The position numbers were made by a program, and so were the translations under genes. From a virus (Duplodnaviria; Heunggongvirae; Uroviricota; Caudoviricetes), in IMG/VR virus record IMGVR_UViG_2534682327_000012: 31,984 bases of DNA; one strand, 5' to 3'. This document shows positions 1 through 31,984 of this stretch, piece by piece; position 1 is the first letter of the stretch; every line of letters starts with the position of its first letter. The notes below the pieces were generated by a model. The model did not search any database. It was not told where the DNA came from and saw only the letters and a list, made by a program, of their open reading frames with translations.

Positions 1-1011
1 TTATAACGTCACTCCGCCTTTTAGAGGATTCAGCGCGACGGCATTTTGCAGGTAGTCAGGCGCAAGGTGCGCATAGGCCATCGTCTGCTGAATGCTCGCA
101 TGTCCCAGAATCTGTTGCAGTGCGATTATATTGCCCCCATTCATCATGAAATGGCTTGCGAATGTATGACGCAGGATGTGGGTTGCCTGATTGGGTGGTA
201 TATCTGGCTTCACTCTGCGTAAAATCCCGCAAAACTTCTCATAATCAACTTTGAATAATTTAGCGCTGGCCTCCTCTTTAACTTTTTTCTCCAGTTCCTC
301 AGAAATCGGCACGGTTCGCTTTTTACCGTTTTTGGTTTTCAGGAAGGTAACCCTGCAATTTGTAATCTGTGCTGGTTTTAGCGTGGCAACTTCCGTCCAT
401 CTTCCTCCAGTGCTCAGACATAAAAGTGCGACAAGTAAGTCATCACCATCCAAAACATTTAACAGTTTTTCGATTTCTGCTTTTTCCAGGAACGTCATTT
501 CAGGGTTGGCCTCCGCCAGTGGCGGCAGTCCGTGAATTGGGTGTTGCCCGGAAAATTCATCCAATTGAATTAATTTTGTGAACATGCCGGATAATCGGTA
601 CATGTCACGGTTTATCGTTGCGGCACTGATACCATCACGTAGTCGCATGGAACGATAATCCATCAAAGCTCTTTTGCTCATCCGGCTCACTGGTATATCA
701 CCTATGCCGCTGATGGTTTTGAGCAGATGATTAAACTCTTTTGTTCCATGCTCGTGGTTTTGCCCGTGATATTTCCACCAGATGTCCAGCAACTCACTCA
801 AAGTTCTGCGATCTGCTCGCTGACCTGCCCATTCTTTCTGGCTGGCGTAGGCGATTGTGTATCGCTCAAATGCTACAGCCTCAGCTTTTCTTTCAAATTT
901 CCTGCGGATGCGTTTTCCGTCGCGACCGCGAGGTCTAATGTCCACTTCATAGCGTCCATCATCGAGCTTCTTAATTGACATAAGAAAGCCCTCTGACGCT
1001 GTATTCACCAT
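1..1011 (-). CDS. int: Tyrosine integrase (P2 Int family), 336 aa
   Basis: Translation has N-terminal IKKLDDGRYEVDIRP and C-terminal catalytic region HILRHTFASHF ... TMAYAHLAPDYL (His/Arg box and catalytic Tyr) typical of P2-type integrases; diverged from P2 Int itself. Confidence 0.93.
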   Translation of the reverse strand: MVNTASEGFLMSIKKLDDGRYEVDIRPRGRDGKRIRRKFERKAEAVAFERYTIAYASQKEWAGQRADRRTLSELLDIWWKYHGQNHEHGTKEFNHLLKTISGIGDIPVSRMSKRALMDYRSMRLRDGISAATINRDMYRLSGMFTKLIQLDEFSGQHPIHGLPPLAEANPEMTFLEKAEIEKLLNVLDGDDLLVALLCLSTGGRWTEVATLKPAQITNCRVTFLKTKNGKKRTVPISEELEKKVKEEASAKLFKVDYEKFCGILRRVKPDIPPNQATHILRHTFASHFMMNGGNIIALQQILGHASIQQTMAYAHLAPDYLQNAVALNPLKGGVTL

Positions 1012-3253: not shown

Positions 3254-3525
3254 GTATTCGTATTGAAATTGGCGAACGTTATGTCGTTACCAGTGACAGC
3301 TTTCAGTTTATTCTCCACGAGAAAAAGAGAGCGGAAAGCGGTAAAAACGCCGGTCAGGAATGGCTGGCGGTGGTTGGTTATTATCCGAAATTAAGCCAGC
3401 TCGTTTCCGGCCTGATGCATCACGATATTCTGACCGGAAGCGCAAAGTCTTTTGCTGATTTAAACGCGCAGGTTGAGCAACTCAGCAAGCGTTGTTCAGA
3501 GGCTTTTGGCTCATATGGCCGTTAA
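3250..3525 (+). CDS. Hypothetical early protein (P2 orf83-like position), 91 aa
   Basis: ORF immediately upstream of and overlapping the A start. Confidence 0.55.
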   Translation: MSIRIEIGERYVVTSDSFQFILHEKKRAESGKNAGQEWLAVVGYYPKLSQLVSGLMHHDILTGSAKSFADLNAQVEQLSKRCSEAFGSYGR

Positions 3526-5800
3526 AGCCTCCGGGCATTTTGTCCCTCCGTCAGCATTTGCTGCAGGCACCGGTAAGGCGTTTACCGGTGCTTATGCATG
3601 GAACGCGCCACGCGAGGCTGTCGGGCGCGAAAGACCCCTTACACGTGACGAGATGCGTCAGGTGCAAGGTGTTTTATCCACGATTAACCGCCTGCCTTAC
3701 TTTTTGCGCTCGCTGTTTACGTCACGCTATGACTACATCCGGCGCAATAAAAGCCCGGTGCACGGGTTTTATTTCCTCACATCCACTTTTCAGCGTCGTT
3801 TATGGCCGCGCATTGAGCGTGTGAATCAGCGCCATGAAATGAACACCGACGCGTCGATGCTGTTTCTGGCTGAGCGTGACCACTATGCGCGCCTGCCGGG
3901 AATGAATGACAAGGAGCTGAAAAAGTTTGCCGCCCGTATCTCATCGCAGCTTTTCATGATGTATGAGGAACTCAGCGATGCCTGGGTGGATGCGCATGGC
4001 GAAAAAGAATCACTGTTTACGGATGAGGCTCAGGCTCACCTGTATGGTCATGTTGCTGGCGCTGCACGAGCTTTCAATATTTCCCCTCTCTACTGGAAAA
4101 AATACCGTAAAGGACAGATGACCACGAGGCAGGCATATTCTGCCATTGCCCGTCTGTTTAACGATGAGTGGTGGACTCATCAGCTTAAAGGCCAGCGTAT
4201 GCGCTGGCATGAAGCGTTACTGATAGCTGTCGGGGAGGTCAATAAAGACCGTTCTCCTTATGCCAGTAAACACGCCATTCGTGATGTGCGTGCGCGCCGC
4301 CAGGCAAATCTGGAATTTCTTAAATCGTGTGATCTCGAAAACAGGGAAACCGGCGAGCGCATCGACCTTATCAGTAAGGTGATGGGCAGTATTTCTAATC
4401 CTGAAATTCGCCGGATGGAGCTGATGAACACCATTGCTGGTATTGAGCGTTACGCCGCAGCAGAGGGTGATGTGGGGATGTTTATCACGCTCACCGCGCC
4501 GTCAAAGTATCACCCGACACGTCAGGTTGGAAAAGGCGAAAGTAAAACCGTCCAGCTAAATCACGGCTGGAACGATGAGGCATTTAATCCAAAGGATGCG
4601 CAGCGTTATCTCTGCCGTATCTGGAGCCTGATGCGCACGGCATTCAAGGATAATGATTTACAGGTCTACGGTTTGCGTGTCGTCGAGCCACACCACGACG
4701 GAACGCCGCACTGGCATATGATGCTTTTTTGTAATCCGCGCCAGCGTAACCAGATTATCGAAATCATGCGTCGCTATGCGCTCAAAGAGGATGGCGACGA
4801 AAGAGGAGCCGCGCGAAACCGTTTTCAGGCGAAACACCTTAATCGGGGCGGTGCTGCGGGGTATATCGCGAAATACATCTCAAAAAACATCGACGGCTAT
4901 GCACTGGATGGTCAGCTCGATAACGATACCGGTAAGCCGCTTAAAGATACTGCCGCGGCTGTTACTGCATGGGCGTCAACGTGGCGCATCCCGCAATTTA
5001 AAACGGTTGGTCTGCCGACAATGGGGGCTTACCGTGAACTACGCAAATTGCCGCGCGGCGTCAGCATTGCTGATGAGTTTGACGAGCGCGTCGAGGCTGC
5101 ACGCGCCGCCGCAGACAGTGGTGATTTTGCGTTGTATATCAGCGCGCAGGGTGGGGCAAATGTCCCGCGCGATTGTCAGACTGTCAGGGTCGCCCGTAGC
5201 CCGTCGGATGACGTTAACGAGTACGAGGAAGAGGTCGAGAGAGTGGTCGGCATTTACGCGCCGCATCTCGGCGCGCGTCATATTCATATCACCAGAACGA
5301 CGGACTGGCGCATTGTGCCGAAAGTTCCGGTCGTTGAGCCTTTGACTTTAAAAAGCGGCATCGCCGCGCCTCGGAGTCCTGTCAATAACTGTGGAAAGCT
5401 CACTGGTGGTGATACTTCGTTACCGGCTCCCACACCTTCTGAACACGCCGCAGCAGTGCTTAATCTGGTTGATGACGGTGTTATCGAATGGAATGACCCG
5501 GAGGTCGTGAGGGGGCTCAGGGGCGCATTAAAACACGGCCTGAGAACACCAAATCGTCAGCAAAGAAACGGAAGCCCGCTAAAACCACATGAAATTGCAC
5601 CATCGGCCAGGCTGACCCGGCCGGAACGATTGCAAATTACCCGTATCCGCGTTGACCTTGCTCAGAACGGTATCAGGCCTCAGCGATGGGAGCTTGAGGC
5701 GCTGGCGCGTGGCGCGACCGTAAATTATGACGGGAAAAAATTCACGTATCCGGTCGCTGATGAGTGGCCGGGATTCTCAACAGTAATGGAGTGGAAATGA
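3515..5800 (+). CDS. A: Replication initiation protein A (rolling-circle HUH endonuclease), 761 aa
   Basis: Translation from MAVKASGHFVPPSAFAAGTGK matches P2 gpA as I recall it; HUH motif TPHWHMMLF and Tyr motif AAGYIAKYISKNIDGY present; the track ORF begins 14 codons upstream at 3473, but the ATG at 3515 gives the P2-like N-terminus. Confidence 0.93.
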   Translation: MAVKASGHFVPPSAFAAGTGKAFTGAYAWNAPREAVGRERPLTRDEMRQVQGVLSTINRLPYFLRSLFTSRYDYIRRNKSPVHGFYFLTSTFQRRLWPRIERVNQRHEMNTDASMLFLAERDHYARLPGMNDKELKKFAARISSQLFMMYEELSDAWVDAHGEKESLFTDEAQAHLYGHVAGAARAFNISPLYWKKYRKGQMTTRQAYSAIARLFNDEWWTHQLKGQRMRWHEALLIAVGEVNKDRSPYASKHAIRDVRARRQANLEFLKSCDLENRETGERIDLISKVMGSISNPEIRRMELMNTIAGIERYAAAEGDVGMFITLTAPSKYHPTRQVGKGESKTVQLNHGWNDEAFNPKDAQRYLCRIWSLMRTAFKDNDLQVYGLRVVEPHHDGTPHWHMMLFCNPRQRNQIIEIMRRYALKEDGDERGAARNRFQAKHLNRGGAAGYIAKYISKNIDGYALDGQLDNDTGKPLKDTAAAVTAWASTWRIPQFKTVGLPTMGAYRELRKLPRGVSIADEFDERVEAARAAADSGDFALYISAQGGANVPRDCQTVRVARSPSDDVNEYEEEVERVVGIYAPHLGARHIHITRTTDWRIVPKVPVVEPLTLKSGIAAPRSPVNNCGKLTGGDTSLPAPTPSEHAAAVLNLVDDGVIEWNDPEVVRGLRGALKHGLRTPNRQQRNGSPLKPHEIAPSARLTRPERLQITRIRVDLAQNGIRPQRWELEALARGATVNYDGKKFTYPVADEWPGFSTVMEWK

Positions 5801-6252
5801 TGGCAAAAATTCACGAGGTAAAGCTGCACGCAAAATATTTTGACCTTGTGCTGGAAGGAAAGAAACGCGCAGAGTTTCGGAAAAATGACCGTAATTATGA
5901 GCGCGGGGACACGTTGATTTTGCATGAATGGGTGCAGGGTGTGTTTACGGGGCGAAAGGTTGAAGCCCGGATAACAGATGTTACTGACCTGTCAGACTGG
6001 CTGGAAGACTATGTCTTGCTAAGTATTGAGCTGCTTAATACAGGCGCATATGAGATTGTGAACTGGAAAGAACTTAGTGAGCGTGGCCTGGTATTCAGAA
6101 TTAATCATGAAATTATGCATCAGCTCGGCCTTGCTGTTATGTATGAACCAGAGACGGGGATGTCTGGCGGGGCAATGGTCGCCACGGATGGAGCATGGAA
6201 CTATTCAGATGAACAGATGGAGCGTGCACAGCAAAACGGGTGGCTTGGATAA
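5797..6252 (+). CDS. ASCH/PUA-like small protein (DUF3850-like), ~151 aa
   Basis: ATG overlaps the A stop; N-terminus KIHEVKLHAKYFDLVLEGKKRAEFRKNDRNYERGDTLILHEW resembles the DUF3850/ASCH family as I remember it (domain call moderate). Confidence 0.7.
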   Translation: MMAKIHEVKLHAKYFDLVLEGKKRAEFRKNDRNYERGDTLILHEWVQGVFTGRKVEARITDVTDLSDWLEDYVLLSIELLNTGAYEIVNWKELSERGLVFRINHEIMHQLGLAVMYEPETGMSGGAMVATDGAWNYSDEQMERAQQNGWLG

Positions 6253-6458
6253 TGCACAGAATACCAGGCGAGATACCGCACCATAAAACTAAAAATATCA
6301 AGCTGATGGCTATTGTTCAGCGTTTACAGCGGATTATGGTCAACGAAAATCTGACGCCCGATGAGCTGGTCGGGTGTGCCGAAATAGTCCGGGATAATTA
6401 CGGGCGGCTTAACTATATCGGTCAGTCCAGAGTTGCGCCACCACCACGCAGACGATAG
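6252..6458 (+). CDS. Small hypothetical protein, 68 aa
   Basis: TAATG overlap with the preceding gene suggests translational coupling; no recognisable domain; may not be real. Confidence 0.35.
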   Translation: MHRIPGEIPHHKTKNIKLMAIVQRLQRIMVNENLTPDELVGCAEIVRDNYGRLNYIGQSRVAPPPRRR

Positions 6459-6530
6459 AGAACGCCGCCAGTCGTGAAACTTGTTTTCAGGGCTGGCGGG
6501 GTTGAACAATGAGCGTAGCGAGGCGTTAGC

Positions 6531-7265
6531 CTATTTATTAAAAAATTCTAGAAGTGTAATTCCATTGGCTCCAAGGCTTACAAAGCCTTCAATACTATTA
6601 ATTGATGTGATTGTCTTTTTCAGAATGTTCTTTAGCTTTGAGCCTTCTTCGGTCGTAGTTATTACTTCGTTAAATTGCTCAGACATACAAGCATGCCCCA
6701 TTGTGGCTTCTGTTGCTGAAATTATTGGCTCAATACCAGTTATTTCATAGTCGTCAAAAGCTCTAATCATGTTGTCAATGTAATATAATATTTCTTTTTT
6801 TAGGTTAATTGGGAAGTCAGAATTAATTATGGATTCCTTCAGTTCTAATAATTGCCCCTTTATTTCAATTAACTGTTCATCTTTAAGTTTTCCAATCTGA
6901 CCTTTGGTCTTGAATAGGACTGATATCATCCCTAATTCATTTATGGCATTATCAGAGATTCTTTGGAGGGAATGGGACAGAGATTCTCCCAGATTTAAGT
7001 TTTCGAAAAAATCATTAACACTGGGCCTCCAGTGTGGTGCTGTGATTTCATCTTCTGGAAAGTAGTCTTTTAATGTGTTATCTATTTTTTTAGGCAAGCT
7101 CATGATTTTGGAAATCTTATCCCATAAGATGGTTTTATTATCTTCAGAACCCTCTAATTCAAACATTTGTAATAAAGCACGCTTTACCGTAATGTTATAT
7201 GGTTGTTGTGCTTTTAGCTTGGTGAAAAACTCTCGTAAGGTCAGTGCTGAATTGTCGATGTACAT
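6531..7265 (-). CDS. Low-GC cargo protein of unknown function in the tin/old slot, 244 aa
   Basis: Long uninterrupted ORF on the strand opposite the early operon, visibly AT-rich compared with flanking phage core; sits between gene A and cos where P2 carries tin/old; no motif I can recognise. Confidence 0.75.
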   Translation of the reverse strand: MYIDNSALTLREFFTKLKAQQPYNITVKRALLQMFELEGSEDNKTILWDKISKIMSLPKKIDNTLKDYFPEDEITAPHWRPSVNDFFENLNLGESLSHSLQRISDNAINELGMISVLFKTKGQIGKLKDEQLIEIKGQLLELKESIINSDFPINLKKEILYYIDNMIRAFDDYEITGIEPIISATEATMGHACMSEQFNEVITTTEEGSKLKNILKKTITSINSIEGFVSLGANGITLLEFFNK

Positions 7266-7467
7266 GGAAAAACCTAACAGTCAAATTATTAATAATAGAA
7301 CAACAAGATACTAATAAAATCTAACGTTAGTATCAATAACGAATATATGCGCATACTGCATGAAAATGCATTTTCTTTTAAGGGGGCGATATATCGAGTC
7401 GAGTCATGGTTGATGCGACATTAGTGTGCTGGTGCAACTGCATTCAAACAGACCCATGAAGCGGGCG

Positions 7468-7486
7468 GGCGAGGCGGGGAAAGCAC
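7468..7486. other. cos: cos site (19-nt cohesive-end sequence GGCGAGGCGGGGAAAGCAC)
   Basis: Exact 19-mer present ~170 bp beyond the 3' end of Q, matching my recollection of the P2 cohesive end and its position relative to Q. Confidence 0.6.
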
Positions 7487-7655
7487 TGCGCGCTGGCGGT
7501 GGTGCTGATTTTATTTTTTCAGCGTCTGAGCGCGTCGTGATGGCGTTTAGTCGGCCTGCCGGGGCGTTGGTGTGTCTGCGGGGTGTTTTGTACAGTGGCG
7601 AACGTGTGAGGGCGTGATGACGGGGTGTAAAAAAGCCGCCCGCAGGCGGCGATGT

Positions 7656-8690
7656 TCAGCCGTTGTCAGTGTCCAGTGAGTAGTTTTTAAATCGGATGAC
7701 CTCCTGACCGAGCCAGCCGTTTATCTCGCGGATCCTGTCCTGTAACGGGATAAGCTCATTGCGGACAAAGACCTTTGCTACTTTCTCAATATCGCCCAGC
7801 GACCCGACGTTCTCCGGTTTGCCGCCCATCAACTGAAAGGGGATGCGGTGCGCGTCCAGCAGGTCTGCGGCACTGGCTTTTTTGATATTAAAAAAATCGT
7901 CCTTCGTCGCCACTTCACTGAGCGGGATAATTTTAATGCCGTCGGCTTTTCCCTGCGGGGCATAGAGAAACAGGTTTTTAAAGTTGTTGCGGCCTTTCGA
8001 TTTCACCATGTTTTCGCGAAGCATTTCGATATCGTTGCGATCCTGCACGGCATCGGTGACGTACATGATGTATCCGGCATGTGCGCCGTTTTCGTAATAC
8101 TTGCGGCGGAACAGCGTGGCCGACTCATTCAGCCAGGCAGAGTTAAGGGCGCTGAGATATTCCGGCAGGCCGTACAGCTCCTGATTAATATCCGGCTCCA
8201 GCAGGTGAAACACGGAGCCGGGCGCGAAAGGTGTCGGCTCGTTGAAGGACGGCACCCACCAGTAAACATCCTCCTCAACACCACGGCGGGGATATTTTGC
8301 CGGTGAGGTTTCCAGTCTGATGACCTTACCGGTGGTGCTGTAGCGCTTTTCCAGAAACGCATTACCGAACACCAGAAAATCCAGCACAAAGCGGCTGAAA
8401 TCCTGCTGGGAAAGCCACGGATGCGGGATAAATGTCGAGGCCAGAATATTGCGTTTAACGTAAATCGGTGAGCTGTGATGCACGGCAGCACGCAGGCTTT
8501 TTGCCAGACCGGTAAAGCTGATTGGTGGCTCATACCATCTGCCGTTACTGATGCATTCGACGTAATCCAGAATGTCACGGCGGTCGAGTACCGGCACCGG
8601 CTCACCAAAGGTGAATGCCTCCATTTTCGGGGCGCTGGCGGTCATTGTTTTTGCCGCAGGTTGCGGTGTTTTCCCTTTTTTCTTGCTCAT
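7656..8690 (-). CDS. Q: Portal protein Q, 344 aa
   Basis: Position adjacent to cos and upstream-overlapping P (ATGA overlap on the minus strand); size and P2 gene order. Confidence 0.92.
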   Translation of the reverse strand: MSKKKGKTPQPAAKTMTASAPKMEAFTFGEPVPVLDRRDILDYVECISNGRWYEPPISFTGLAKSLRAAVHHSSPIYVKRNILASTFIPHPWLSQQDFSRFVLDFLVFGNAFLEKRYSTTGKVIRLETSPAKYPRRGVEEDVYWWVPSFNEPTPFAPGSVFHLLEPDINQELYGLPEYLSALNSAWLNESATLFRRKYYENGAHAGYIMYVTDAVQDRNDIEMLRENMVKSKGRNNFKNLFLYAPQGKADGIKIIPLSEVATKDDFFNIKKASAADLLDAHRIPFQLMGGKPENVGSLGDIEKVAKVFVRNELIPLQDRIREINGWLGQEVIRFKNYSLDTDNG

Positions 8691-10462
8691 CAGTAAAACT
8701 CCAGAATGGTGGATGTCAGCGGGGTGCTGATACCGGCGGTGAGTGGCTCATTTAACAGGGCGTGCATGGTCGCCCAGGCGAGGTCGGCGTGGCTGGCTTC
8801 CTCGCTGCGGCTGGCCTCATAGGTGGCGCTGCGTCCGCTGCTGGTCATGGTCTTGCGGATAGCCATAAACGAGCTGGTGATGTCGGTGGCGCTGACGTCA
8901 TATTCCAGACAGCCACGACGGATAACGTCTTTTGCCTTGAGCACCATTGCGGTTTTCATTTCCGGTGTGTAGCGGATATCGCGCGCGGCGGGATAGAACG
9001 AGCGCACGAGCTGGAACACGCCGACACCGAGGCCGGTGGCATCAATACCGATGTATTCGACGTTATATTTTTCGGTGAGTTTTCGGATGGATTCCGCCTG
9101 GGTGGCAAAGTCCATGCCTTTCCACTGGTGACGCTCAAGTATTCTGAATTTGCCACCGGCCACCACCGGCGGTGCCAGTACCACGCATCCGGCGCTGTCG
9201 CCACGGTGTGACGGGTCGTAACCAATCCATACCGGGCGGGAGCCGAACGGATTGGCGGCAAACGGCGCATAGTCTTCCCATTCTTCCAACGTGTCGACCA
9301 TGCAGCGTTGCAGCTCCTCGAACGGGAACACCGATGCCTTGTCGTCAACAAATTCACACATGAACAGGTTTTTAAAATCGTCGGCGCTGTTTTCGCGTTT
9401 GAGCTGCTCAATGTCGAACAGCGTGCAGCCGCCTTTCAGGGCGTCCTCAATGGTGACAATCTGTCGCCACTGGCCGTCCGCACAGAGAAGCCCACCGGCA
9501 AGGGCGTTATGACTGACGTCGATTTCCACACGTTCGGCGGCGCTGGCGCGTCCCCGGTTAAACAGTTCACCCGACCAGAACGGGTAGGCGTCGTGCGCCA
9601 GCGTGGACGGGGTGGAGAAATAGGTCGAGCGCAGGTGACTCTGTGAGGCCATACCTGATGCCACCTTACGCAGTACCTGAAAATTCGGGATCCAGAAAAT
9701 CTCATCGACGTACAGGTCGCCGTTATGACTCTGCGCGGTGTTGGAGTTGGTGCCGAGAAAAATCAGTTTTGCGCCGTTATTGCCCAGGACAATCGGGTCA
9801 CCGGTCAGGTCAACGTCAACCAGACGGGCAAAGGCGATGATGTATTCGCGGAACACATACGCCTGCGTTTTACTGGCCGACAGAAAAATCTGGTTATGAC
9901 CGGTTTTCAGGGCACGCAGCAGCGCCTCGCGGGAAAAATAAAACGTCGCGCCAATCTGGCGGGATTTCAGGATATCGCGGATGCGGTGCTCAAGCCCGGC
10001 GCGATACCAGTGCAACTGATAGTCGAAAGACTGCTCAAAGAAAATCTGCTCCAGCTTTTCGATGGCCTCGTCACTGAAAAAATTCTTTTTCGGTTTGCGA
10101 CGCCCGCCTTTGTTGCGGTTAGCGACGTTCGGATTAAGGTCTGCCTCGTTGCCGGTCTGACTGTAGCGGTTTACCCGTGCCAGTCGTTCAATCTGGCGTC
10201 CGAGCAGGTCAATTTCCTTGAAGTCACCACCGGTTTTCTGCGGTTTGATGATGAGCTGGGTCAGTCGCGCTTCCAGACTCATTTCGACACGGCTGATGGG
10301 GGCAACGCTGTCCCAGCCGTCGCGCTGTTTCCAGCTCTGCACCGTCGGGCGTTTCATCTGCAACATGGCGGCAATCTGCGGCACGGAAACCCCCTGCCAG
10401 TACAGCAGCGCCGCCTGACGACGCGGGTCGTGTAAAAGAGTGGTGTCTGTGGTGATGGTCAT
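8690..10462 (-). CDS. P: Terminase large (ATPase) subunit P, 590 aa
   Basis: Translation from MTITTDTTLLHDPRRQAALLYWQG matches P2 gpP as I recall it; the track ORF extends 10 codons upstream to 10492, but the ATG at 10462 gives the P2 N-terminus. Confidence 0.92.
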   Translation of the reverse strand: MTITTDTTLLHDPRRQAALLYWQGVSVPQIAAMLQMKRPTVQSWKQRDGWDSVAPISRVEMSLEARLTQLIIKPQKTGGDFKEIDLLGRQIERLARVNRYSQTGNEADLNPNVANRNKGGRRKPKKNFFSDEAIEKLEQIFFEQSFDYQLHWYRAGLEHRIRDILKSRQIGATFYFSREALLRALKTGHNQIFLSASKTQAYVFREYIIAFARLVDVDLTGDPIVLGNNGAKLIFLGTNSNTAQSHNGDLYVDEIFWIPNFQVLRKVASGMASQSHLRSTYFSTPSTLAHDAYPFWSGELFNRGRASAAERVEIDVSHNALAGGLLCADGQWRQIVTIEDALKGGCTLFDIEQLKRENSADDFKNLFMCEFVDDKASVFPFEELQRCMVDTLEEWEDYAPFAANPFGSRPVWIGYDPSHRGDSAGCVVLAPPVVAGGKFRILERHQWKGMDFATQAESIRKLTEKYNVEYIGIDATGLGVGVFQLVRSFYPAARDIRYTPEMKTAMVLKAKDVIRRGCLEYDVSATDITSSFMAIRKTMTSSGRSATYEASRSEEASHADLAWATMHALLNEPLTAGISTPLTSTILEFY

Positions 10463-10635
10463 GAATACCTCGCCGTGATGAATACACGGCAAGGCTACTG
10501 AGTCGCGCCCCGCGATTCGCTAAGGTGCTGTTGTGTCAGTGATAAGCCATCCGGGACTGATGGCGGAGGATGCGCATCGTCGGGAAACTGATGCCGACAT
10601 GTGACTCCTCTAATCACTATTCAGGACTCCTGACA

Positions 10636-16907: not shown

Positions 16908-17693
16908 TTATGAGTGATTTTTATTTGATGCTTTGTATTCTACAACCTTCTTATTGGCGTAAAGGAATTTTGTATATGACAGGAATATAACCAGACCTGA
17001 AATGAAATAGATGAGGGATATTATTAATAATGCTTTTTTTTGGCTGTTATTATCTTTAATCTCCTGACTTAACCATTCCGAGTCCTCCTCGTTTAGCTGT
17101 AAGAGCTTATTGCAGGCGATCTCAGGAAGTGTGTCTTTTATAAATACGTTTCGTAGCCTCTTGCAATCGGCAAGGCTATAAGTTTTATTGAATTCAACTG
17201 CTTTATTCTTGAAGGATAAGAGAACTTTGTCACTATAAACATAGTACATCATGTTTTTATATGGTATGCCTATGGCATCCCTTACTATAACGGATTGTTC
17301 GTTGTGTATGTAACATGCGAGGAGAATGCAAAAAATACTGGACAGAATTACAATTATTGTTTTAATTATGTGTGGTGTTTTTGTTATGTCACCCCAGATG
17401 CGAGTAAGGAAAAAACACGATGTTTTTAGTTTTCCATCAATCAGTCCCTGCTGTATCATTCTCACATTTTCAATGCCTGATACATTGATTCCGTTAATTA
17501 TTTTAAATAGTTGAATGTCGCGCCACTCGCGGTCAAGTCTTTTTAATTTTTTGTCTGAATACCCAAAATTGAAATAATGTGCAATAAGCCTCATAAGGTT
17601 ACTTTTACCAAAGCTAAAAAATGCTAATACTGCAAAGCTACAAAGGAAAAAAACGATTAGCCCCCACACATTAGTCACATTATAGCTGACCAT
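16908..17693 (-). CDS. Low-GC cargo membrane protein of unknown function in the orf30 slot, 261 aa
   Basis: Strong RBS AAGGAG 6 nt upstream of the ATG (minus strand); three hydrophobic segments (N-terminal, central, C-terminal); AT-rich; on the strand opposite the late tail operon. Confidence 0.8.
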   Translation of the reverse strand: MVSYNVTNVWGLIVFFLCSFAVLAFFSFGKSNLMRLIAHYFNFGYSDKKLKRLDREWRDIQLFKIINGINVSGIENVRMIQQGLIDGKLKTSCFFLTRIWGDITKTPHIIKTIIVILSSIFCILLACYIHNEQSVIVRDAIGIPYKNMMYYVYSDKVLLSFKNKAVEFNKTYSLADCKRLRNVFIKDTLPEIACNKLLQLNEEDSEWLSQEIKDNNSQKKALLIISLIYFISGLVIFLSYTKFLYANKKVVEYKASNKNHS

Positions 17694-17776
17694 TACGCTC
17701 TCCTTGAATGTTGTCTGGTAGTTCTACAAATGAATCCAGATAGCATAACTTTTATATATTGTGCAATCTCACATGC

Positions 17777-18412
17777 ATGAACACTCTCGCAAATATTCAG
17801 GAACTCGCGCGCGCACTGCGCAACATGATTCGCACCGGCATTATCGTCGAAACCGACCTTAACGCCGGTCGCTGCCGTGTGCAGACCGGCGGCATGTGCA
17901 CCGACTGGCTTCAGTGGCTGACCCATCGCGCCGGACGTTCGCGCACATGGGGGGCACCTTCCGTAGGGGAACAGGTGCTGATTCTGGCCGTGGGCGGTGA
18001 ACTCGACACGGCGTTCGTTCTGCCGGGGATTTATTCCGGCGATAACCCCGCGCCGTCTGCGTCGGCGGATGCCCTGCATATCCGTTTCCCTGACGGGGCG
18101 GTGATTGAGTATGAACCTGAAACCAGTGCGCTCACGGTAAGCGGAGTTAAAACGGCCAGCGTGATGGCTTCTGATTCTGTTACTGCCACGGTGCCGGTGG
18201 TTATGGTGAAAGCATCAACCCGCATCACCCTGGACACACCGGAAGTGGTCTGCACCAACAAACTGACTACCGGCACGCTGGAAGTGCAGAAGGGCGGGAC
18301 GATGCGCGGCAACATTGAACACACCGGCGGTGAACTCTCATCAAACGGTAAGGTACTGCATACCCATAAACACCCCGGCGACAGCGGCGGCACAACCGGG
18401 AGTCCTTTATGA
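17777..18412 (+). CDS. V: Baseplate spike/assembly protein V, 211 aa
   Basis: Translation from MNTLANIQELARALRNMIRTGIIVETDLNAGRCRVQTGGM matches P2 gpV as I recall it; the track ORF starts with a TTG at 17759. Confidence 0.9.
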   Translation: MNTLANIQELARALRNMIRTGIIVETDLNAGRCRVQTGGMCTDWLQWLTHRAGRSRTWGAPSVGEQVLILAVGGELDTAFVLPGIYSGDNPAPSASADALHIRFPDGAVIEYEPETSALTVSGVKTASVMASDSVTATVPVVMVKASTRITLDTPEVVCTNKLTTGTLEVQKGGTMRGNIEHTGGELSSNGKVLHTHKHPGDSGGTTGSPL

Positions 18413-23166: not shown

Positions 23167-23416
23167 AAGGCCACCATGAATATTTCAGAACCTTGTCAAA
23201 AGGTTTGCCCATACTCTAGTCTTGCAATGTGTAGTTGATAGTTCCACTGAGGAGGTTCTTCGACATTCTTTATAAAAATGTACATTTTCATCAATAATAA
23301 GAGGTAAAAGGGCTTTAATAGTTTTTGTGGATGTTATTTCTACTCATAAATTTTGAGATAAGTATTGAGTTGAGATAAAGTTAAACTCGTTAAATTCACC
23401 TTTAAAAGGATAAAAC

Positions 23417-23944
23417 ATGGACTGGAAAGATCTTGCATCAACCGCTGTGTATACAGGTATGACTGATGAAAATGAAAGCATATGGGAACGTGTTGATGGG
23501 GTTGACGTTGCCTTCATAGGTGCCTTTCTTACTGCGCACTTGAGCCTTGAAAAGTATATTACTGATTATCTTGGATTAAGATATCCTTCGTTAGCTTGGG
23601 GTGATGCAAAACTCACATTTTCACAAAAAATAGCTTTAATACAACATGAGCCTGCAAAACCCCCTTATGATGAAATATATTTAAGAATAAAAGACTTTAA
23701 CAGCATAAGAAATAAAATCAGTCATCAATTGAATTATCAGATTACGGATAAAGAAAAAAGTAAGTTTGTGGACTTCTATATGAAGATTACTAAAGCCAGT
23801 AAAACTAAACCAAATATTGATATTGATAACATGGCAGATTTGTTGGGTTTTTTCGTATCGATGACAAAATCCTATTTTGCTAGTGCTATTTCTTATTATC
23901 ATTATAATAAAAAGGTTGCAGGTAAAAGTAATAAAATTGATTAA
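23417..23944 (+). CDS. Low-GC cargo protein in the Z/fun slot, 175 aa; candidate HEPN-like RNase (motif R98-N-K-I-S-H103)
   Basis: RBS AAGGA ~7 nt upstream of the ATG; AT-rich; RNKISH encoded at 23708..23725 fits the HEPN Rx4-6H motif with the usual Asn after Arg; a terminator follows downstream. Confidence 0.75.
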   Translation: MDWKDLASTAVYTGMTDENESIWERVDGVDVAFIGAFLTAHLSLEKYITDYLGLRYPSLAWGDAKLTFSQKIALIQHEPAKPPYDEIYLRIKDFNSIRNKISHQLNYQITDKEKSKFVDFYMKITKASKTKPNIDIDNMADLLGFFVSMTKSYFASAISYYHYNKKVAGKSNKID

Positions 23945-24119
23945 TAAAACTGGACTTAGGGATAATTAATATATAGACGTTCTATCATTTTTAGAGTGTG
24001 CGGCAGCTCCATACATTCATGCGGATGTCAGCACCTCGCTCAAAGCAGACAGTCAGATTTGATAGCGTTTGGACTATGTAAATAGTCAGTTGGAAAATGA
24101 GTGAGTACAAATCAGGACA

Positions 24120-24146
24120 GGCGGGCGAATTGCCCGCCTTTTCTTT
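24120..24146 (+). terminator. Rho-independent terminator: GGCGGGC, loop GAATT, GCCCGCC, then TTTTCTTT
   Basis: 7-bp GC-rich stem, 5-nt loop and U-tract seen directly, ~175 bp downstream of the slot-3 cargo gene and ~100 bp upstream of FI. Confidence 0.75.
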
Positions 24147-24242
24147 ATCTGTTGTTTCATCCACTGACCAGCCAGGTCAAATAGCGTCTCATGCTCTGCA
24201 CAACAGAAAATAGTTGCACCCATTAACCACGGAGTTAAACGG

Positions 24243-31000: not shown

Positions 31001-31081
31001 ATCCTCAATTTGCCTGCTGCTTAATGCATTGCAGATGATTTGCTTCCGTTATACTAGCGTCAGTTGATAGCGGGAGTATTT

Positions 31082-31984
31082 ATGAATCAATCTTATGGAC
31101 GGCTGGTCAGTCGGGCGGCGATTGCTGCGACGGCGATGGCTTCGTTGCTATTGCTGATTAAAATTTTTGCATGGTGGTATACCGGGTCGGTGAGTATTCT
31201 CGCCGCGCTGGTGGATTCGCTGGTGGATATCGGCGCGTCGTTGACGAATTTACTGGTGGTGCGATATTCCCTGCAACCTGCCGACGATAATCACTCGTTT
31301 GGTCACGGTAAAGCAGAGTCCCTCGCGGCGCTGGCGCAAAGTATGTTTATCTCCGGTTCGGCACTATTCCTGTTTTTGACGGGTATTCAACATCTGATAT
31401 CTCCAACACCGATGACAGATCCAGGCGTCGGGGTTATCGTGACAATTGTGGCGCTAATTTGTACGATTATCCTTGTCTCGTTTCAGCGTTGGGTGGTGCG
31501 CCGGACGCAAAGCCAGGCGGTGCGGGCTGATATGCTACATTACCAGTCTGATGTTATGATGAACGGCGCAATTCTGCTGGCGCTGGGGTTGTCCTGGTAC
31601 GGCTGGCATCGCGCCGATGCTCTGTTTGCATTGGGAATCGGCATCTATATTTTATATAGCGCGTTACGCATGGGATATGAGGCGGTACAGTCATTACTGG
31701 ATCGCGCATTGCCTGATGAGGAACGGCAAGAAATTATTGATATCGTGACTTCCTGGCCGGGTGTTAGCGGCGCTCACGATCTTCGCACGCGGCAGTCAGG
31801 GCCGACCCGCTTTATTCAGATTCATTTGGAAATGGAAGACTCTCTGCCTTTGGTTCAGGCACATATGGTGGCGGATCAGGTAGAGCAGGCTATTTTACGG
31901 CGTTTTCCGGGATCGGATGTAATTATCCATCAGGACCCCTGTTCCGTCGTACCCAGGGAGGGTAAACGGTCTATGCTTTCATAA
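31082..31984 (+). CDS. fieF: Host cation-diffusion-facilitator Fe/Zn efflux transporter FieF (YiiP), 300 aa
   Basis: Translation [54 protein letters not shown]... recognised as enterobacterial FieF; the track ORF starts at an upstream TTG, the ATG at 31082 gives the known N-terminus; stop at the window end. Confidence 0.93.

Follow-up and report, generated by a model that had tools for sequence, protein, structure and literature searches.

A single-gene cargo cassette in the tin/old slot of a P2-like prophage and its possible part in phage exclusion

In phage P2, the interval between the replication gene gpA and the cohesive-end site cos carries the anti-phage genes tin and old. What does a related prophage hold at this place when it carries something else, and could that cargo serve a similar end? 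We addressed this question in IMG/VR virus record IMGVR_UViG_2534682327_000012 (Caudoviricetes), the whole 31,984 nucleotides (nt) of which are referred to as the window. A previous reading of the DNA, made from the sequence alone, had pointed to an AT-rich orphan gene of 244 codons on the opposite strand (ORF244, for open reading frame) as a candidate defence cargo in the tin/old slot, and had considered that it might be a diverged homologue of Tin. Our comparisons show that ORF244 forms an apparently self-contained, single-gene cargo cassette with its own predicted promoter in the cos-proximal hotspot between gpA and the portal gene gpQ (Table 1).

Limits, expression signals and spread of the cassette

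The cassette was delimited with two Escherichia coli P2-like prophages (L029 and L030), which are 92-99% identical to the flanks in the window and have different inserts between them: 214 bp with an ORF of 54 amino acids (aa) in L029, and 1.1 kb encoding an unrelated 313-aa protein in L030. Because homology reaches up to 6530 and resumes from 7426-7433, the variable cargo comprises only 6531-7425, that is, ORF244 and 160 bp of DNA upstream of it. ORF244 sits in the interval bounded by gpA and the portal gene, at 200 bp from cos, and is oriented like tin and old. Its GC content is ~0.33, with values of 0.31-0.35 across 6601-7350 (300-nt windows) versus 0.51-0.56 in both flanks. Position, strand and low GC, on which the sequence-only reading had based its proposal of a tin/old-slot cargo, are thus all borne out. 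The gene layout that it gave for the slot was accurate as well, but the ASCH gene and the small ORF that it had counted as part of the replaceable slot both belong to the conserved flank. In the window, L029 and L030 alike, the cargo gene ends with its stop codon at the left cassette junction (6530/6531).

The geometry of the predicted sigma-70-like promoter is kept in homologous cassettes, for example as TTGACC - 17 nt - TAGCAT in L023. Upstream of its -35 element, the conserved block contains the motif ATGCATTTTCATGCA followed by a second ATGCA, and the motif is a possible operator or regulator binding site. Since both the promoter and the ATGCATTTTCATGCA motif are retained in the cassettes of other phages, ORF244 seems to travel with its own expression signals. 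The motif also resembles TGCAxxTGCAT in the conserved cos-proximal flank (7437-7448).

The flanks are matched in 2,159 of the 5,426 complete E. coli genomes, the cassette in a single one (DEC5E, O55:H7); with the different inserts of L029 and L030, this confirms the earlier suggestion that the locus is a variable cassette among related P2-like prophages. Just one of 50,697 phage records, that of Yersinia phage GMS190, contains it. Searches for the locus returned two species genomes and seven viral contigs (window included) with the close-family alignment, and one viral contig with the mid-range alignment. Homologues of ORF244 fill this slot, with the portal gene on one side and gpA on the other and with their orientation unchanged, in eight P2/186-like loci drawn from Klebsiella, Enterobacter, Scandinavium and metagenomes, and in most of these loci the homologue is the sole cargo. 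The cargo of the eight loci has a GC of ~0.36 against a background of 0.5 and is 53-77% identical to ORF244, and the gpA of most is only 36-39% identical to that of the window. This distribution shows that the cassette, to judge by the divergence of its carriers, moves between divergent peduoviruses and occupies the tin/old slot. In L021, the ORF244 homologue shares the hotspot with a 912-aa HD-CE protein (4980-7718, minus strand; Pfam HD-CE 8.5e-46), which also partially matches the C-terminal part of the DRT UG24 model.

The full-length homologues of ORF244 form 17 clusters (90% identity level) that are 44-81% identical and come from Escherichia, Enterobacter, Klebsiella, Cronobacter, Kosakonia and Serratia. 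The ratio of nonsynonymous to synonymous substitution rates (Ka/Ks) is ~0.1 (0.09-0.20 against five homologues), and by this measure ORF244 is a real gene under purifying selection. The exact protein is present on 81 contigs and is annotated as hypothetical every time. That annotation has never gone beyond 'hypothetical protein' would suit an ORF that arose by chance or a pseudogene decaying within AT-rich junk DNA, an explanation to which we attach next to no weight because of the Ka/Ks value, the full-length collinear homologues down to 44% identity and the 783 distant, equally long profile matches described below; the well-predicted AlphaFold model and the conserved promoter speak against it too.

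ORF244 in relation to Tin, Old and other protein families

Tin blocks T-even phages by poisoning T4 gp32 and is reported to act by binding, not by catalysis. It resembles ORF244 in being encoded by a single AT-rich gene of similar size (253 vs 244 aa) and similarly low GC, located in the same gpA-cos slot and on the same strand, all of which would agree with ORF244 being a highly diverged homologue of P2 Tin. The two proteins nevertheless proved unrelated at the sequence, profile and predicted-fold levels. No BLASTP alignment of ORF244 with P2 Tin (NP_046797) had an E value below 4 (best E = 4.1), and hhalign comparison of a 60-sequence ORF244-family profile with a 20-sequence Tin profile gave a probability of 0.7%. 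Moreover, the AlphaFold model of Tin (predicted local distance difference test, pLDDT, 81.7) is mixed alpha/beta with 9 strands and a D..ExK-like motif, whereas the ORF244 model consists of 14 helices and no sheet. The suggestion of a diverged Tin is therefore refuted by all three comparisons, and we regard it as practically out of the question. As for Tin itself, its family (P2 tin, L001:4685-5446; alignment A3) has the invariant stretches R98-x-G-R-x-D103 and C-A-I-E121-V-K123-G; in the model, D103 and E121-x-K123 lie on adjacent strands, a PD-(D/E)xK-nuclease-like signature of which we found no prior mention. Sequence searches found no relative of Tin in PDB.

P2 Old, which combines an ABC ATPase with a TOPRIM nuclease, occupies the same hotspot in the reference phage P2. 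The slot in the window is unlike it in that ATPase and TOPRIM domains are both missing and none of the ORFs is long enough for them, the cassette being only 895 bp; the ORF list, Pfam and PADLOC agree that the gpA-gpQ interval has no OLD-like ATPase/TOPRIM ORF, as the sequence-only reading had stated. The DUF4238 protein, a validated single-gene system of the P2 hotspot (Rousset et al. 2022, PMC9122126), is also one gene without a recognisable enzymatic domain, but it belongs to a different family.

ORF244 has no match in Pfam, NCBIfam, PDB or PADLOC; in the last case, a defence-database check suggested with the original prediction, no known model was matched. When 60 relatives were run singly against Pfam, NCBIfam and PADLOC, they gave scattered single weak matches and no common family. 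Sequence searches of solved structures with profiles A1 and A2 yielded nothing below E = 0.007, and what surfaced were designed helical proteins. A weak ArsR/helix-turn-helix (HTH) signal (E 0.13-0.3) and a match to HTH_CHD6-9 (E 0.019, below the cut-off) were judged to be noise. The Avd/23S-rRNA-IVS four-helix bundles scored as any up-down helical bundle would, without sequence signal and with Foldseek E > 0.3 (PDB). The sole library match of ORF244 was phrog_15904 (4.2e-171 over residues 1-244 of 244), which was also matched by all 60 sampled superfamily members; as no function is assigned to this PHROG, the match gives the family a name but does not explain ORF244.

An exhaustive profile search of 1.84 billion representatives retrieved 783 proteins at E <= 0.001 (representatives at the 50% identity level), including 219 at E <= 1e-10. 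Almost all of them are ~240 aa long and align end to end, and the named members are from Gamma- and Betaproteobacteria. A further protein search with the broad profile mostly gave the close family again. Calling ORF244 an orphan is thus right as regards its annotation, although the protein is one member of a large family without a name.

Among the members of this superfamily, a Serratia member is located where a P4-like element ends, an Enterobacter member in a P2 remnant beside an SMEK_N protein, a Chromohalobacter member at the end of a prophage and a Shewanella member immediately upstream of a DUF4062 protein; in Pseudoxanthomonas, a member shares an islet with a SocA/Panacea gene, and in one viral contig a member is adjacent to the integrase. 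They also occur on 34 plasmids, 23 of which are conjugative and which include IncF plasmids; the plasmid proteins are true ORF244 homologues (BLASTP 7e-27 and 1e-38, full length). Their neighbours there include PifC-PifA (PifA 1.5e-290), SIR2, a PDC-S06 ATPase, TIR with PDC-M28ABC, a Pycsar pair and RES proteins. Where plasmid regions were inspected, the gene was close to repE/ccd or distal to traI, and the annotation around it showed none of the classical leading-region genes. Judged by such neighbourhoods, the contexts of the superfamily are those of accessory, element-borne genes.

In a plasmid subfamily, the member (X) is part of a conserved vapB-vapC-X unit, encoded on the same strand with a gap of 24-31 nt on six plasmids from six genera. 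The units are flanked by unrelated DNA on both sides, and their downstream neighbours differ (SIR2, PifCA, Pycsar, RES). Between plasmids, X is 56-70% identical versus 81-93% for VapC. In L042, an AbrB/MazE-type antitoxin is kept upstream of the superfamily member. From its gene order, vapB-vapC-X looks like an undescribed three-component VapBC module. It is made up of three genes, like the CmdTAC-type toxin-antitoxin (TA) defence modules, which possess a third, sensing component, and X evolves faster than the toxin. ORF244 differs from these modules in that it is solo and shows no resemblance to a SecB-type chaperone, and the VapBC link is syntenic only.

The AlphaFold model of ORF244 (pLDDT 85.7, low at 221-244) is all-alpha, with two helical lobes of roughly residues 1-120 and 129-244, and the isoelectric point (pI) of the protein is 5.0, so that the acidic, helical protein foreseen from the sequence is supported on both counts. 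Columns conserved across the family are mostly hydrophobic, Gly or Pro, and contain no residue set suggesting catalysis. An N-terminal motif, M-x-x-D-N-P-A-x-R-L, is found family-wide and reads D-N-S-A-L-T-L in the ORF244 clade; a conserved turn, Y173-x-I-T-G177-x-x-P180, is followed by E186, G190 and H191. The N-terminal motif and the turn with these three residues are candidate interaction surfaces. Hydrophobicity reaches its family-wide maximum in the C-terminal 30 residues (mean Kyte-Doolittle, KD, value of 1.1-1.4, up to 2.1 in some members), a region whose helices are each too short for a classical hairpin.

Possible roles of ORF244

The gpA-gpQ interval is a published hotspot of anti-phage systems, and Table S5 of that study already lists the arrangement found here as 'DUF3850/ASCH + hypothetical + hypothetical', the hypothetical protein being WP_001461844; ORF244 is absent from the constructs tested there (Rousset et al. 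2022, PMC9122126). In our literature search, no paper named phage GMS190 or the accessions of the ORF244 protein. Of eight cargos of no assigned function picked at random from the equivalent P4 hotspot, six protected (bioRxiv 10.64898/2026.02.27.708500). The reading that we favour, and to which we give slightly less than an even chance, is that ORF244 would be a stand-alone, non-enzymatic phage-exclusion gene of the lysogen. It is favoured by the hotspot position, the cassette behaviour, the selection on the gene, the travelling promoter and the defence-gene neighbours of the homologues. That ORF244 would protect the lysogen against other phages comes close to an even chance.

As for how it might do so, the absence of a catalytic signature in ORF244 favours action by binding. 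By its model the protein is a soluble, two-lobed helical bundle, and it would probably act by binding rather than catalysis. It might tie up or poison some protein of the incoming phage, following the logic of Tin without its fold; alternatively, it might recognise a phage product and then act via its conserved, moderately hydrophobic C-terminal tail. As a mechanism this is a guess, and an unlikely one as it stands. The whole family, with ORF244 as its founding member, may even be a large unrecognised class of non-enzymatic helical 'sensor' proteins, working solo or wired to an effector, in which, for instance, the X of vapB-vapC-X would detect phage infection and free the PIN toxin. Gene order is what suggests this last idea, and we hold it to be somewhat unlikely.

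Several observations count against a role in phage exclusion. Searches with PADLOC-DB v2 found 0 families for ORF244 and none common to more than one of the 60 relatives, and Foldseek searches against PDB found no informative fold relative (E > 0.3). The C-terminal tail of ORF244 is weakly hydrophobic (KD19 maximum 1.09). The predictor of the preprint on the P4 hotspot called just 15-32% of unknown P2 proteins antiviral (bioRxiv 10.64898/2026.02.27.708500), and the cargo of the P2 hotspot also includes partition systems and toxins (Rousset et al. 2022, PMC9122126). In addition, two lambdoid prophages (L040 and L041:7001-7717) have a superfamily member in the early-right nin region, between rusA and ant/Q, a position that would fit a lytic-cycle or counter-defence role equally well. 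Because of the low KD19 maximum, membrane action is not supported for the ORF244 clade, and neither is a colicin-like or Bcl-2-like pore, which was considered as well. The L040 prophage also has an Acb2/Tad1-like gene near its lysis genes.

Two other roles have to be set beside phage exclusion. ORF244 might be a counter-defence or establishment factor of the phage, satellite or plasmid, for example one that blocks a host defence protein. Many inhibitors are likewise acidic, helical and non-enzymatic, the superfamily is carried by several kinds of mobile element, the lambdoid members sit in an early-right operon (rusA to ant/Q), in a phage with an Acb2/Tad1-like gene, and the plasmid member evolves faster than VapC. 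However, the P2-like ORF244 has its own predicted promoter opposing the early operon, as do the lysogen-expressed tin and old; the plasmids inspected place the gene by repE/ccd/vapBC/pif or distal to traI, with none of the classical leading-region genes annotated close by; recognisable anti-defence genes were present in only 28 of 1,511 P2 elements; and a pI of 5.0 is unlike that of a strong DNA mimic. On balance, counter-defence appears quite improbable. It is a little easier to imagine, and still doubtful, that ORF244 is an accessory gene with another benefit, such as an adaptor or regulator of a TA system (VapBC), a maintenance function or a lysogenic conversion unrelated to phages. The vapB-vapC-X unit remains locked together on six plasmids amid unrelated flanks, L042 retains its AbrB/MazE-type antitoxin upstream, and the P2 hotspot is known to carry non-defence cargo (Rousset et al. 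2022, PMC9122126). Nonetheless, in the window and in all eight P2/186-like loci the ORF244-type gene stands alone, unaccompanied by a TA partner in the slot, and the genes next to other superfamily members are unrelated (DUF4062, DUF6680, hypotheticals). In such islands, TA-linked modules are often defence systems themselves, and therefore an accessory role of this kind overlaps with phage exclusion.

The hotspot between gpA and gpQ has proved to yield new immune systems, and in ~1/5 of P2 elements it carries only unknown genes. That its cargo varies, and that it includes the ORF244 arrangement (Table S5, PMC9122126), is already known; what this work adds is the precise limits and content of the cassette, the finding that it is no Tin homologue, the extent of the family and the settings in which its members occur, and the vapB-vapC-X module. 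With 895 bp, its own promoter, a confident model, no known fold relative and no family name, the cassette is now defined and testable, and ORF244 is a good wet-lab candidate rather than a discovery in itself. If it protects, a new protein family would be added to bacterial immunity and the conserved three-gene VapBC module would be explained; if it does not, it would be a counter-example to the assignment of function from hotspot position alone. Should the family consist of sensors, it would represent a new, widespread class of anti-phage immunity on P2-like and lambdoid phages, P4-like satellites and IncF plasmids.

Flanking genes and further islets of the prophage

The window as a whole is a complete P2-like prophage. 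Since a phage integrase lies at its left end and a FieF-like host gene at its right end, the right prophage boundary falls at ~30.6-31.0 kb. The early genes to the left of the cassette are tightly packed: the ATG of the ASCH gene overlaps the gpA stop within ATGATG, and the start of the small 68-aa ORF overlaps the stop of the ASCH gene (TAATG). RefSeq places the starts of gpA (in DEC5E) and of the ASCH gene at 3515 and 5800, respectively. The ASCH gene and the small ORF are equivalent to Wphi gp91/gp92 and are found in many other P2-like phages. The inverted repeat that follows them, still in the conserved flank, separates the convergent early operon from the cargo gene; it lacks a canonical T-run and could possibly stop convergent transcription. 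To the right of cos, the portal and terminase genes occupy 7656-10492 on the minus strand. PADLOC gave no match for any ORF of the gpA-gpQ interval, and Rfam gave none within 6200-7700.

Table 1. Positions of the cassette, its surroundings in the window and the plasmid units that contain a superfamily member
Feature	Position	Strand	Evidence or remark
Variable cassette, 895 bp	6531..7425	.	blastn vs L029 and L030: homology to 6530, again from 7426/7433
ORF244, sole gene of the variable cassette, all-alpha acidic 244-aa protein	6531..7265	-	ATG start
Sigma-70-like ORF244 promoter, TTGATA - 17 nt - TAGTAT	7308..7336	-	Predicted; upstream alignment of homologous cassettes
ATGCATTTTCATGCA motif upstream of -35	7357..7371	-	Conserved among ORF244-type cassettes from different phages (upstream alignment)
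Phage integrase	1-1011		Left end of window
gpA replication endonuclease, left hotspot anchor	3473..5800	+	Pfam Phage_GPA 7.3e-124; RefSeq annotation in DEC5E
ASCH/DUF3850 + DUF7415 gene, conserved flank	5797..6252	+	Pfam DUF3850 1.2e-17, DUF7415 2.2e-14, ASCH 2.4e-10
Small 68-aa ORF, conserved flank (Wphi gp92-like)	6252..6458	+	phrog_11386 4.1e-39; RefSeq WP_000554772
Inverted repeat, 19-nt arms, between convergent genes	6461..6503	.	Repeat search, 84% complementary; RNA fold z = -3.6
cos cohesive-end 19-mer GGCGAGGCGGGGAAAGCAC	7468..7486	+	Identical to P2 cosR; aligns with cosR feature of NC_001895
Portal protein gpQ, right hotspot anchor	7656..8690	-	ORF calling; RefSeq annotation
Host cation-efflux (FieF-like) gene	31064-31984		Right end of window
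vapB-vapC-X units	L031:6544-7735, L032:6317-7735, L034:5319-6735, L037:5317-6735, L038:5324-6735, L039:5324-6735		Plasmids

Two further AT-rich islets were observed in the window. The second islet (GC ~0.35), at 16908-18079 on the minus strand among tail/baseplate genes, holds ORFs of 261 aa and 128 aa, both without a Pfam or PADLOC match, and is another cargo slot. The third (GC ~0.34), with a 175-aa ORF (23417-23944, plus strand) that likewise has no Pfam or PADLOC match, spans 23200-24200, behind the gene for tail-fibre assembly and in the place that Z/fun has in P2.

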